From: Lingula anatina
Taxonomy: Eukaryota > Animalia > Brachiopoda
Direction: 5' to 3'
DNA: 64,000 nt
NCBI GenBank assembly: GCA_051362555.1
Contig: CM120644.1
Span: 24,016,534-24,080,533 of the forward strand
Shown: one piece after another, positions 15,229 through 24,200 of the stretch
Position numbering within the stretch: the first letter of the stretch is position 1
How the letters are laid out: each line of letters opens with the position of its first letter
Notes under the pieces: model-generated
Told to the model about the DNA's origin: nothing
The model's database searches: none
Seen by the model: only the letters and a program-made list of their open reading frames with translations
Translations under genes and position numbers: made by a program

Positions 15229-18200
15229 ATGGCGGCCAGACCCGGCTTTCAAAGTCCCATGCAGCCTCCACAGCCAAGGTTTAACCCGCAGGGACCACCG
15301 ATGAGGCCATTTCATCCTCAGGCTTACCCAGTAAGTAGCCAGGATAAGTATACCAAAGTAGAGAATGGGTTATATGGGTTGAAATATGGATGATAATTGA
15401 CTAGATAAATCTAGGTCAATATATTTCTTTGTCACAGTGAGGAATGAAGCTCTGTCCCTTCGCTTTGTATTATTAGAGAAATGTAGCGTCAGCTTGCAGT
15501 GCGTGTCTGACAGTGGCATGTCTTTCAGCGGTTAGTTATTACTTTTTTGGTTTCATAATAATATATTATTCATGCATTTCCCTTTCTAGAGATATGATAA
15601 CACATTCATGATTCACTTTTTGAATAAACCTAGAGCCTTTTGAGGGCAATCTAACCTGATGTTGAGGATTTGAAGGTGTTCACTTTGTAATGCATTGGGC
15701 ATAAACTGATAAATCAAAAATTGATGGCATCTTTTAAGTTACTTCCAAGAGTAGATATATGCTGGTATTTAATCATTACGGTAAATTAAGTAGACCCCGA
15801 AGTATATTTTCAAAATCCGGAGAAATAAAATGAATTGCTAAGGAATAAACTCAAAAGTGCAACTGTCTGTAATAATAATAATCTTCACCCCCTCCCCTCT
15901 CTCTTTCTCCTTGCAGCAGGGAGGCTCCATGCGTCCAGGATACCCCAGTCCAGGCCCAGGGGGGACCCCCATGGGTCAGATGCCAGGGACCCCAGGGAGA
16001 ATGCACATGATGCCCTCGTCACATCATACCCCCAGTGGAGTACCACACCCCTATACAGGTAATATAACACCTGGGGTAGGGAGGGGTTGAGAATTAATGC
16101 TTCTTAATACAGTGAATGATAGTAAATAATGGTATATACTTGATGTAAATGAATAAAAAAATTGTAATATTTTGTGCTAGTACAGTAAGTGGTTTGAAAT
16201 TTATGCTTCTTGATTTAATAAATAACAGTACTAGTATATGCTTGAGATATATATTGAATAGAATTATGATATTTTGTTTGTGTTTTGAAATTAATACTTC
16301 TTGATATAATGAATGAGGGTAATGATGGTATATATTTTTATTGTGTAAAATTGTGATATTTTGGTACTTGATGTAAACATTGAGATTGCTGTTTTACATG
16401 GGTTCAAGTCTAAAGCACTACAAACTTGAATCTTCATATTATATAATATTGTGCATACCATGTCATTTTCATTAAATTTTGAGTGAGTTGATGTAGTTCA
16501 TTATAAAGAATTAAAAACACTTCTATTAGAATAATATATATCAAATATTAATTTAGAGTATATCAATATGAATAGATATATAATATTACAGCATGCAAAT
16601 ATTAATATCATATAGTCTGCATGTGGTACATGTGTCTCTTGTCTCTTGTTAATCCTAGTGAGTCATCATATCCACATAGCTAGCTGTTTGCATTATATTA
16701 TTATTTATATCCTTTATTATGTGTGGGTATCTTTCTCTTTGTTTGTTTGTTTGTTTGTTTACAGAACTTTCTTCTATTTGAAATAAATATTTAGGGATCC
16801 TAGGTTATGTGAATGTGTATATATCTGCTATATTTGTTATATGTGTGAGTATTGTTAGGCTGTGTACCTAGTTCCAGAAGACAACTGCAACTTGGACATC
16901 TAGGTGCATTTGATCCTTTTTAGGTTCATTAATGAACCTATTTGTATCAAGTGTTAAGGGAAAATATGTTTGCTCTAGATTTTTTTTTTTCTAAAATCAA
17001 AGTTCATTTTCACAGAGACAAAAATTCTGGCCCTGATTTAGCATTATGCCTAACTTCACATAAAGATGAATTAGAAGGTGAAAAAAAAGGAAAAAAGTCA
17101 CCAGGTAGTTTGCATGTTATACGGGTTGTGATTGTGTTTCACCACCACATATGGCACCCTCTGTTGATTGATTTTTATGGTGCATGTCATGATCACATTA
17201 AAATTTGAAATCATAGTCTCGCCACATTATACATATGTTCTGTTTAAAAAGTATTTTTTGGAAACTTGACTTCATATTTGGTATGTGTACATACATGGAA
17301 ACAATTCTTGGCATCTGTTTTTAATAAGTTAAAGATTAATTAACCCAAACAGAAACACCGTGGTTTTGGATAGTTTCCCCTTATATCGGACATGTCCCTC
17401 AACTTTGCATGATAACACTAGTTTTATATGTAGCACGAGAAAATAATAATATTGTAATGTCACCAGTCTTGACTAACACTGTCTATGTATGCTGGGGAGA
17501 ACACTTCATCTCTTCTTTCTGTAACAAAATTTCTCAAAGTTAATGCATTCATGTCCTGTCTGTTGTTGTAACAACTAATACACATTTTTCTAGTATAACT
17601 TTGTTGTGATAAAGATTTTAATAAAGGCCTTTTTTCTTCTGCGCCGTCATTCCCAGGAAGTGGAAGCCCCAGTACTAAGGGCTCAAGTGAGTATTTTTAC
17701 GTTGCTGTGTGTCTGGGTTTTCATGTATTATAATCAAAAAAGGTTCCCCAATGAAAAAGTCCTATAAGATCCTATAGGACCTTTTCGTAAGGGTTTATTC
17801 GACCACTAAAGATACATAATATAAAATACATGTTTAAAAGTAATTACTATACACATGATTAGACTGAGAAGTGAAATAAATAAGACTGGCCTTAATTAAA
17901 AAGTTATTAGCCCATGACTAAAAATATAATTTGTATTTATTAAAAGAAAGAAGTGGTAATTGGCTGATTTACACATTTTGTAAGGTTAAAGCACAGACCT
18001 GTCTCTGTGGCTTGTAACTACTTAAATATATGTTTATCTCTGACTATGTTGATCCTTCGAACACATTAATGGCTATTGTTGAGTATCACCTTCCTCTGAT
18101 ATTTATTTATGTATTTCAATACTTGCATCCTGGTCTCAAGCTTATCATGGGTGGATGGGAGGGGGAGACAGTACAATTTAGAAGTCTCTTGTCTGGGAGA

Positions 18201-21200: not shown

Positions 21201-24200
21201 CAGCAATTACTTGGATCTTTTCAGTGGAGGAAAATTGTGAATTTCACAGATACTGTATTTATTACGGCATTTTTCTTAAAATTACTATTGAGTGGCAACA
21301 GCAAATTTTAAAAGCAGACCACCTACTCTATTCTATGCAATAAAAGCAACAAGAATGCCACTCAGAAATAAAAAATTTGTAATGATCATAAAATTATGTA
21401 TCTGAAAGATTGATAATTTTTCGCCCATTGAAAAGATCGAGCCATTACCATAACCGTAACAGACTAGTCATTGTAAGCTCCTTCAACATACAGCAACAAA
21501 CATGATTGTTTGGTCTCTTCAAAAAAAGTTAATTGTTTTACTATCAGTATACAAAAAATGGTGAAATAACCGTTTCATGACATTTGTTTGATCTTCCTCA
21601 AAGTTCTTAAATTTGTGCTGCATCAGTGATGTTTGTTTGTCTTAAATGCTTGCATTGTTTTGATGTGTGCTAGGGCGAAGTATGTCTGTGATTTAGTATC
21701 TGTATAAGAACATTGCCTAGCAGTGAAGCATGACTGAAACTTCGTTTAGTCTACTAAATTTTATTTTGACTGAGGAACTATATTATCTTCATTTTAGCCT
21801 TTTAAATCAATAAGTCAAAATACCCATCCAAGTTATTCTTATTGCGGTTTGAGAGCCTCACCTAGAAAAATTTCCTTCAATTTTAAGTTGTCTTTTAATT
21901 GCCAAGGCACACCTTCCCAAAACTGTATTTTACTACTGATTTATAGAAAAAAAGAAATAAAATTAGAAAAAAAATTATGTCCGTGTTTTATCAATACACT
22001 TGATGCAAGGCATAACTAACAGAAAGAAATATATTTATTTGTCACTGAAATACAGAAAAGACCTAGGCTACGCATGTCAGATTTGTCTTCCTTTCATGAC
22101 CACCATGTTTTTATTTAACTGTGGTTTACTGTTTTGCTGTTTAGTTTTTGAAAAGCATGTCCCTAAACATCACATTGATATTAATAACTAATAATAGTAA
22201 TATTTATGTAGATATGATTAGAGAGATAATAGCTTTCCTTGTGCTCCAGCTACTTTCTGTGTTTATTGTCCTAGGATATGTATTTGTCCTAGTCTGTTTT
22301 CTTATATTACATAATAATGTTTTCTTGTCTTCATATCTTCTATATTTAATTGTCAGACTGGTGCAATTTAATTTTAATAACTTAATAAATTTAGTATAAT
22401 TATAACACGTTGCTGAAGCCTTCAACTCAAGGTGTTGAACATTGTCAGTGTTTGACCCAGATATTTTAACAAAACTAAGGTTAACATTATTTTTATTTAA
22501 CTAATAAAGTCAACTGCTTACTTATTCATTGAAATGTTTAGTTGATTGTCTAAGTTATTAGTGTCTCAAGGTGTTAAGTAGATTGTCTGGGTTAATCTAA
22601 CATTAAAATAGTTAATTTTATCTCTGTCTTAACTTTGAAGCAGGTGCCAAGTCTAAAGAAAGTGAGTATTGTGTCAATGGAATGATGATGTTTTTACTAC
22701 TAATATCCAGTCCTTTCATATTAACTGAAGACGCATTTTCATTATAATTGTTACAGCTCAACTTGGTGCTTGCTCTTTCTGCAGACATTATTATGATTAG
22801 ATCACCATGAGATCTATCCAATCTCTTTTGTCCCACCTGACACATCCCCTCCCATGGTTTATCGCAACATTTTTGCCTGAGATTTTATCGGGTATTGTAT
22901 TCCTCTAACTGTTCTGTTTAATTAAGAAATTGCCAAGAAAGCCATGTGCGGGACAACAGGGAGATTGGGTTGGTTCCCACTGGTGAAGTGATCGTACACT
23001 GTCCGATGGGATAGTGCATACCAAGTTACTGTGTCATCTCAACTGTAAATGCGCTTACGTTTCAGTCTTGTCATAGTAACTAACAATCAGCCATGTTAAT
23101 TAACATTCAGCAGTAGTTTTCACCAGTGAGAATTTCCCAATGTTAAGAGATGAAAGGGGGAGTCTTTTGTTCACTTTCTTAAAATGTATGCAATGAAACA
23201 GTGTTAGACAAACATGATTAGACTATTAGTTTAATATCAACTGTGAACGTCTCTCATAACAGCTTGCAACCCCACCCCCCACCCCCGGCCCACTATTACT
23301 CCCACACACAAACACTGGCTAAACAGACTTAGGCTTCGTGCACATGCAATGTCTATTTTCTAAATTCTATTTTCTATTTGCGGTATGTCTTATGATCACG
23401 GTCTGTGGCCTGAATATCCCGCGGCGTAATTACTGGCAGCGCGAGCCAGTTACTTATAGTAACTTATACAGTGTAGTAACTGGCTCGCGCTGCCAGTAAT
23501 TACGCCGCGGGATATTCAGGCCACAGACCGTGATCATAAGATAGCGCAAATAGAAAATAGAAATTAGAAAATAGACACTACATGTGAACGAAGCCTAACT
23601 TGCATGTATAACATCATGTTGAAAACAAAATCATCGTGATGAAAATCATGTTTACAATCCATCATATTTTAAACCAATTCCAATAATCTGTAGGCAAAAG
23701 TTAATAAGTTTTCTATATTTTGAAAGTTTCTATTTACTTGGGGAAAATGTGAAGTTTATTGACAGCTTGATGTTGTGTATTTTTTTAGCCTCCAGATCCA
23801 AAGAGCAAAGTAGGTGGAAGATCTGCATGAAAAAATAGTTTCCTTTTTTTATTTATTAATTATTATTTTTCTTCAATTTTTTTATGGGAGGGGGGGGTCC
23901 CTACTAATTCAGAGAAATTTGCTGCTTTGGATGTTGTAATTTAGTTACAATCATGAATATTATTGGCACTGGGTATGCTTCATATTGATAACAACCAATT
24001 TGCCATTTTGAAGTTATTATTCAGTACTACATTCTGTGCTTTAAATAATTTGCCACCTTAGTCTGAAAATTTAGCTGATGACTAAAATCAGGAACATTGA
24101 CTTGTGGCTCATTTACAAAATCTTACTGGGCTAGCTCCTATTTTACTATCGTTTGTCATGTTAGTGCATCATTTGTTCTCTAGTGTTAACTTAGCAATAT

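Follow-up and report, generated by a model that had tools for sequence, protein, structure and literature searches.

A tandem array of optional microexons in the predicted disordered tail of the chromatin remodeling subunit SMARCD/BAF60 of Lingula anatina

The gene for SMARCD/BAF60, a core subunit of the BAF (SWI/SNF) chromatin remodeling complex, lies on the forward strand of a 64,000-nucleotide stretch of the genome of the brachiopod Lingula anatina (GCA_051362555.1, contig CM120644.1, positions 24,016,534 to 24,080,533), to which we refer as the window and whose first letter is position 1. Intron 2 of this gene (phase-1 donor at 16058, exon 3 from 26850) hosts six in-frame microexons, m1 to m6, whose inclusion varies among RNA samples. 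They insert up to five K/R-S-K-D/E/Q motifs and one Ser/Thr-rich unit into an N-terminal tail that is otherwise devoid of lysine and predicted to be disordered. We lean, without much assurance, toward the reading that, through regulated inclusion, the lysine-free BAF60 tail acquires modifiable lysine motifs in graded number and that this changes the partners or the turnover of the subunit.

The identity of the host gene is given by its SWIB/MDM2 domain (PF02201, E 1.5e-25), by the match of human SMARCD1 chains to the Lingula protein (E 4e-209), and by an exon 4 that is 100% identical to L. anatina SMARCD1. Exons 1 to 3 together with all six microexons differ from the RefSeq protein XP_013410646 at 1 of 160 residues (A versus G, in m4), and in tblastn the exons of the window map onto P0130, the Lingula isoform that skips the cassette. 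RNA reads came from four of nine same-species runs (X1, X2, X4, and X7), each sampled in part (6 to 25 of 100). On the + strand, the coding part of exon 1 (15229..15330, ATG to phase-0 donor) matches residues 1 to 34 of P0130 at 100%, and its joint 15330>15917 was present in all four runs. Exon 2 (15917..16058, 142 nt, ending in phase 1; defined by sequence and RNA) and exon 3 (26850..26946, 97 nt; defined by its RNA joint to exon 2) are the constitutive exons upstream and downstream of the cassette, while exon 4 (27233..27398; defined by protein match) opens the conserved core with a poly-K stretch followed by MADKIL.

All six microexons lie on the + strand and fall into two classes. The single class A exon, m1 (17657..17686, 30 nt), encodes a Ser/Thr-rich peptide of 10 residues with an S-P-x-x-K site, is present in RNA joints and in 12 of the 13 RefSeq proteins, and has a TGC 17 nt upstream. 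The class B exons are m2 (18649..18666, 18 nt, (T)SKSKD; 11 of the 13 RefSeq proteins and RNA bin depth; TGC 12 nt upstream), m3 (20298..20324, 27 nt, (T)GPKSKQES; X4 reads and 5 of the 13 RefSeq proteins), m4 (22641..22661, 21 nt in the long form of a NAGNAG acceptor, (S/T)GAKSKE, with G(G)KSKE in RefSeq and in run X4; X4 reads and RefSeq), m5 (23789..23809, 21 nt, (T)SRSKEQ; X4 reads and RefSeq), and m6 (24432..24455, 24 nt, (K)SKEPKDS; 5 of the 13 RefSeq proteins and RNA bin depth). An earlier note, made from the sequence of the window, had described m1 to m5; their coordinates, lengths (30, 18, 27, 21 or 18, and 21 nt), AG acceptors, openness in phase 1, and donors (GTGAGT, GTAAGT, GTAAGT, GTGAGT, and GTAGGT) all proved correct. 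Its count of "at least five" overlooked m6, which has a CAG acceptor, a GTAAGT donor, and a weak pyrimidine tract (9/20) that a pyrimidine cut-off of 13/20 misses. The 18-nt form of m4 (from 22644) was seen neither in the RNA reads nor in RefSeq, where the 21-nt form alone occurs. Ten further segments that the scan returned at the 13/20 cut-off were rejected, being not a multiple of 3, interrupted by stops, or unsupported by RefSeq and by the RNA rows listed. Five of the six exons lie within the 27-nt cut-off for microexons, m1 having 30 nt. All six are internal exons with canonical splice sites and satisfy the definition of a micro-exon as one of at most 51 nt (PMC4317164). Between m4 and m5, at 23329-23598, there is a palindromic element whose 58-bp arms contain a perfect inverted repeat of 67 bp; it draws many repeat-derived RNA reads and is likely a miniature inverted-repeat transposable element.

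The opinion that such an array is hard to explain by chance is borne out by simulation. A filter for open segments of 12 to 36 nt, a multiple of 3 in length and with a strong donor, which was chosen after the segments had been seen and which misses m6 and the long form of m4, returned six candidates in intron 2, four of them with [KR]SK, versus simulated means of 0.66 and 0.005. Among 200 order-2 Markov simulations none reached six candidates, and one held any [KR]SK. The same filter gave one candidate on the reverse strand of intron 2 and, in the 32.8-kb intron 4, five on the + strand and two on the - strand, none of them with [KR]SK.

The RNA joints considered here are the best-supported ones, with 90 and 46 further rows beyond them. 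Reads joining exon 2 directly to exon 3, with all six microexons skipped, numbered 41, 34, 0, and 1 in X1, X2, X4, and X7, respectively; those joining exon 2 to m1 numbered 34, 49, 32, and 4, and those joining m1 to exon 3 numbered 29, 39, 0, and 0. Ten X4 reads connected 20324 to 23789 through the 21-nt m4, forming an m3-m4-m5 chain. Joints were thus seen for m1, m3, m4, and m5, and among those listed none involved m2 or m6. The bin depth of m2 was 1.97 in X4 versus 0.39 and 0.61 in X1 and X2, and that of m6 was 2.27 versus 0.05 and 0. The bin reads for m2, m4, m5, and m6, which are upper bounds since intron reads are included, were about 45, 20, 22, and 39 in X4; 9, 0, 8, and 1 in X1; and 14, 11, 0, and 0 in X2. 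X1 and X2 make mostly the skip-all and m1-only forms, and X4 almost only long forms. When X4 was compared with X1 plus X2, Fisher's test gave a p of 3e-8 for inclusion of m1 versus skipping of all six and of about 3e-17 for what follows m1 (the latter from a table derived by subtraction), the reads in both cases not being biological replicates. We infer that the difference between runs reflects regulation by tissue or stage. The earlier note had proposed a real alternative cassette, as opposed to a lone direct 16058-26850 junction with unconserved segments; the RNA shows skip-all, m1-alone, and m3-m4-m5 forms, and in relatives the proteins carry optional inserts at the matching position, as detailed below. 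At exonic sites between 15229 and 27398 the runs differ from the window and from one another, mostly silently with respect to the protein, and are therefore from genetically distinct animals; an allele of m4 has an altered serine codon and keeps KSKE.

The cassette is not hidden, as had been supposed: each of the six exons already figures in RefSeq isoform models. The cluster comprises 13 Lingula proteins (including XP_013410646 to XP_013410737) with 11 distinct combinations, namely none, 1, 12, 124, 125, 1234, 1245, 1256, 12345, 12456, and 123456. Instead of the free combinatorics of up to 32 isoforms envisaged earlier, these 11 are nested, so that every inclusion form begins with m1, and m3 to m6 occur only alongside m2. 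The array would act as a dial with three steps (none, m1 only, or m1 followed by a class B chain) and not as 64 free combinations, and its outcome would likely be BAF60 forms that are tissue-specific.

The inserts fall into a part of the protein which the earlier note took to be disordered, and structure prediction agrees. The cassette residues, 83 to 130, belong to the least confident part of a model whose mean pLDDT is 61, with values of 33 to 38 and no secondary structure, and solved SMARCD chains match only from residue 133 onward; the cassette region is predicted to be disordered. The 112-residue tail of the Lingula skip form contains 10 arginines and no lysine, and with all six exons it gains 11 lysines. 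Across 14 lophotrochozoan pairs of isoforms, lysine makes up 54 of 388 insert residues (13.9%) versus 16 of 1351 residues in the constitutive tails (1.2%). In 12 pairs, K-x-K-[DEQ] occurred 15 times in 346 insert residues (in 9 of the 12 sets) versus 0.79 expected on shuffling, and not once in the 1184 residues of the corresponding constitutive tails. The added lysines would act as modification and binding sites that tune subunit partners or turnover. The SUMO consensus is psi-K-x-E; a reading of the inserts as SUMO sites was set aside by inspection, the acidic residue coming directly after the lysine.

Conservation was read from 30 clusters picked by hand from two protein searches, several of them because the representative showed an insert. 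The names Lingula, Littorina, Patella, Octopus, Mytilus, Mactra, Owenia, Ridgeia, Paralvinella, and those of the arthropods come from the records; oyster, abalone, scallop, Biomphalaria, nemertean, bryozoan, echinoderm, cyclostome, and lungfish are presumed assignments based on accession ranges. All 16 hand-picked multi-isoform lophotrochozoan clusters that were read had optional inserts at the same site, downstream of an HPY/HGY-like motif and upstream of M-x-R, the carriers being a brachiopod, molluscs, a nemertean, and annelids. Three of four lophotrochozoan clusters with a single protein (Ridgeia, Paralvinella, and a bryozoan-like protein) had an insert, and one had none. Typically a single Ser/Thr-rich exon with a lysine near its end comes first, followed by zero to five class B (K-x-K-D/E) units. 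Class A peptides resembling the 10-residue one of Lingula are GGSPSSKS in oyster and ASTSSPSGK in the nemertean, and an S-P-x(x)-K site was present in class A in 4 of the 14 pairs. Lingula has five class B copies, Patella has three, oysters and Biomphalaria have two each, and abalone, Littorina, clams, and scallops have one; in Mytilus, no class B unit was present among the 15 of 21 cluster members listed. The residues at the junctions shift as predicted for symmetric codon-splitting exons, with boundaries deduced from isoform differences, and the inserts of the different phyla are probably orthologous exons. Outside these groups, none of 52 named arthropod N-termini contained K-x-K-[DEQ], isoforms of shrimp, beetle, wasp, and an orthopteroid vary at places other than the cassette site, and none of seven vertebrate-type proteins, a sparse sample, had an insert at that site. 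In Octopus (P0304) extra optional exons sit at the position of the upstream intron 1. Together with the echinoderm-type inserts discussed below, they suggest that a hotspot is involved, and not shared ancestry alone.

Two further observations concern the same proteins. In Owenia fusiformis, P0378 and P0242 differ in the class A insert and in the whole next exon, which suggests mutually exclusive forms of exon 3. The pairs P0002/P0124, P0280/P0182, P0313/P0189, P0327/P0207, and P0338/P0205 share the N-terminus and differ in total length, which indicates further small optional inserts in the conserved SMARCD core of several lineages.

Graded lysine motifs are not the only way to read these inserts. 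Bulk charge might matter instead: a mixed-charge, lysine-rich patch on a Pro/Gly/Met/Gln-rich disordered tail would alter the affinity of BAF for DNA or nucleosomes, its nuclear retention, or its partitioning into condensates. This alternative is somewhat unlikely in our view. The inserts raise the charged-residue fraction of the tail from 0.107 to 0.189; those of the nemertean, the annelids, the bryozoan-like protein, and Octopus are longer alternating tracts of K/D/E or K/R/E in place of discrete motifs; and the middle residue of the class B motif varies among S, A, T, N, M, V, and D. Neuronal splicing of LSD1 and PHF21A moreover alters nucleosome or DNA binding (PMC11864812). Against it stand the excess of K-x-K-[DEQ] over the same residues shuffled and the confinement of lysines to the inserts in a tail that already has its 10 arginines, which suggest a lysine chemistry beyond charge.

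A more specific proposal, which we judge unlikely, is that the class B exons are candidate methylation sites of SETD7 (SET7/9), so that inclusion would install methyl-lysine degrons or docking sites like those handled by SET7, L3MBTL3, and CRL4-DCAF5 on mammalian SMARCC1/2. It agrees with the distribution of [KR][STA]K, which is absent from the 517-residue Lingula skip isoform and occurs five times in the full form, always within m2 to m6; with the SETD7 consensus K/R-S/T/A-K-D/N/Q/K (target lysine third), relaxed at +1 (PMC8949485); with the control of SMARCC1/2 proteolysis by SET7-type R/K-S/T/V-K sites (PMC9637158); and with 11 strict motifs in 12 sets versus 3.35 on shuffling. The strict motif is, however, restricted to 7 of the 12 sets, and in Lingula E occupies +1 in three of the five motifs, which the original consensus does not allow; the other two fit D/N/Q/K. 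Annelids reportedly lack SETD7 (PMC12153100), yet the N-termini of Ridgeia and Paralvinella hold one and two strict motifs, respectively, and matches to the consensus far outnumber confirmed substrates (PMC8949485).

The inserts might also be nearly neutral, the product of an intronic hotspot at which small exons that preserve the frame arise and duplicate, in a disordered linker and without specific function. The wide variation in sequence and copy number (0 to 5 class B units) within a region predicted to be disordered, the skipping of all six exons in about half of the X1 and X2 transcripts, and the exon-gain hotspots described for splicing programs (PMC8797185) are compatible with this. 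We nevertheless find it highly improbable in view of the inserts in every one of the 16 multi-isoform lophotrochozoan clusters read, with a common motif and class order, of the almost complete inclusion in X4, and of the m4 allele that spares KSKE. The claim that no combination creates a stop holds for the five exons it was made for; with m6 added, and both forms of m4 counted, 4 of 96 combinations contain one, in each case from m3 joined directly to m6. That the cassette mainly sets the mRNA level through this premature stop and decay is barely credible, since all exons preserve the frame, the other 92 combinations are open, and the m3>m6 junction occurs in none of the 13 RefSeq proteins and not among the RNA joints listed.

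The class B unit likely arose by old exon duplication, as judged from m2 to m5. In DNA comparisons, the similarity scores of m2/m4, m2/m5, and m3/m4 were reached in 0 of 500 shuffles, and the other three pairs among m2 to m5 gave shuffle p values of 0.012 to 0.044, a similarity driven in part by the common peptide motif. m6 showed weak similarity to the other microexons (0.07 to 0.48) and m1 none (0.10 to 0.37); m1 also uses AGY for three of its four serines, while m2 to m6 use TCN only. Of the five paralogous KSK-motif microexons proposed earlier, four therefore remain as a group similar beyond shuffling, m1 being a separate class without KSK in an array of six. Across 30 comparisons of flanking introns there was in general no similarity, the exceptions being m2/m3 upstream (pyrimidine tracts, 0/100) and m2/m6 downstream (0.04); such an absence is expected if the duplications are old.

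Candidate splicing signals accompany several of the exons. The Rbfox-type motif TGCATG is found on the + strand 33 nt downstream of m2 (18699..18704), 47 nt downstream of m3 (20371..20376), and 15 nt downstream of m5 (23824..23829), its function being putative. Its presence within 60 nt downstream of three of six microexons has a binomial p of 0.004 (0.015 for 100 nt and 0.04 for 150 nt). ACTAAY, which we take to be a QKI/How-type motif, occurs 38 nt downstream of m4 and 94 nt downstream of m5. UGC is near the acceptors of m1 and m2, and the AG-free zones of the microexons (21 to 54 nt) are no longer than those of constitutive exons 2 to 4 (51 to 63 nt). Human alternative micro-exons show enrichment of TGCATG on their downstream side (PMC4317164), and UGC near the acceptor is a feature of eMIC exons in the fly (PMC8797185). 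Rbfox-type and eMIC/Srrm-type factors may thus drive inclusion, which would point to nerve or muscle; the signals hint at these tissues and prove neither.

Several observations weigh against regulated, conserved lysine motifs. The RNA support for m2 and m6 is bin depth, the junction reads of X7 are too few for use (one skip, four inclusion), and RefSeq supplies its combinations as automatic models. X4 stems from another study than X1 and X2 and has other alleles (for instance at 26863 and 26866), and the runs carry no tissue labels, so that effects of genotype, stage, and library are not separated from those of tissue. TGCATG is missing within 100 nt downstream of three of the six microexons, and UGC is missing near four of the six acceptors, yet present at constitutive exon 2. 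Four of the 14 pairs, those of one clam, Mytilus, a cephalopod-like set, and a scallop, lack [KR]-x-K-[DEQ]. Pairs and clusters were hand-picked and share phylogenetic history, and inspection preceded the choice of motifs; the p values therefore overstate. The exon boundaries in other species come from isoform differences and not from DNA. Finally, two echinoderm-type clusters (P0338 and P0341) carry optional inserts rich in Ser/Thr and Lys one intron upstream, in intron 1, and because these sit at a different site, such inserts can arise independently.

A wider reading, which we offer tentatively and with low confidence, is that the dial has been kept since before the split of brachiopods, molluscs, nemerteans, and annelids. 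A gate exon and a lineage-expandable K-x-K-D/E array would turn a lysine-desert tail into a multivalent tract of modifiable lysines in nerve or muscle, in place of the vertebrate swap of SMARCD paralogues, and echinoderms would do something similar one intron upstream.

Other features of the window lie mainly in the 33-kb intron 4 of SMARCD, where six single-ORF RING/B-box genes, recognized by domain matches, are nested antisense on the - strand (29399-31225, 38639-40072, 43379-45205, 47976-49808, 52099-53940, and 55434-57320). Five of the six have NHL repeats (TRIM2/3-like); the 477-aa copy at 38639-40072 has no NHL match, and its frame ends early. The DNA flanking these genes looks tandemly duplicated, and by eye a segment of about 480 bp is present twice (31970-32470 and 34375-34855), while the region at about 59100-60040 reads like the remnant of a degenerate Tc1/mariner transposase. 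A SMARCD core exon at about 63077-63239 is flanked by tandem partial copies (62820-63150 and 63200-63470), which comprise its acceptor and 5' part in units of about 108 bp and also its 3' end and donor; they may represent decoy splice sites or a feature of the assembly.

The array resembles several known systems and differs from each. Microexons in mammalian chromatin regulators are already known: the neuron-specific ones of LSD1, PHF21A, TAF1, and others are likewise short, in frame, and located in widely expressed subunits of chromatin complexes, BAF members included, where they yield forms specific to a cell type, but they are mostly single events kept between mouse and human, whereas Lingula has six tandem, motif-repeating exons whose copy number varies by lineage (PMC11864812). 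The string SMARC does not occur in the main text of that paper, Figure 1 and Table S1 being outside the check. With the bilaterian neural program of eMIC/Srrm234 (PMC8797185) the array shares frame-preserving exons of 18 to 30 nt and, in m1 and m2, the UGC near the acceptor, its AG-free zones being no longer than those of constitutive exons; the targets of that program are reportedly almost wholly rewired between phyla, whereas the BAF60 site appears, from proteins, to persist from brachiopod to mollusc, nemertean, and annelid, and four of its six exons lack UGC. The RBFOX-enhanced micro-exons of human brain and muscle (PMC4317164) similarly have TGCATG shortly downstream, as do m2, m3, and m5, but half of the Lingula exons lack it within 100 nt. 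The methyl-degrons of SMARCC1 and SMARCC2 (PMC9637158 and PMC10889763) are R/K-S/T-K motifs on SWI/SNF core subunits too; the mammalian sites are constitutive, whereas those of Lingula are added by splicing to SMARCD, and some carriers may lack the enzyme. Vertebrates make cell-type-specific BAF versions through BAF60c in heart and BAF53b and BAF45b,c in neurons (PMC11864812) and through the exon 7 switch of DPF2 (bioRxiv 10.1101/2023.09.10.556946), that is, by exchanging paralogues or one larger exon, in contrast to a graded microexon array within one gene. The RefSeq SMARCD1 models of Lingula contain the same six exons, and their entries give no account of the array, its regulation, or its conservation. 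Judging by titles and the openings of abstracts, we found no account of a SMARCD microexon array in the literature covered, which left most subscription papers, supplements, and VastDB outside its scope; one paper, PMC10835012, contains both "microexon" and "SMARCD1". What appears to be new is a tandem, motif-repeating microexon array of variable copy number on a core BAF subunit, at one site in several phyla.

Since molluscs and worms have matching optional inserts at this position, the array is likely an old way of making tissue-specific versions of BAF60. If so, it would be a rare case of a microexon site that has persisted in several phyla, in contrast to the near-complete rewiring reported in PMC8797185. 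It would also provide a natural copy-number series, from zero to five motifs, for probing the role of lysine in a lysine-free disordered tail. To our knowledge, invertebrates have few BAF paralogues, and the array is a candidate answer to the question of how such animals build cell-type-specific remodeling complexes.

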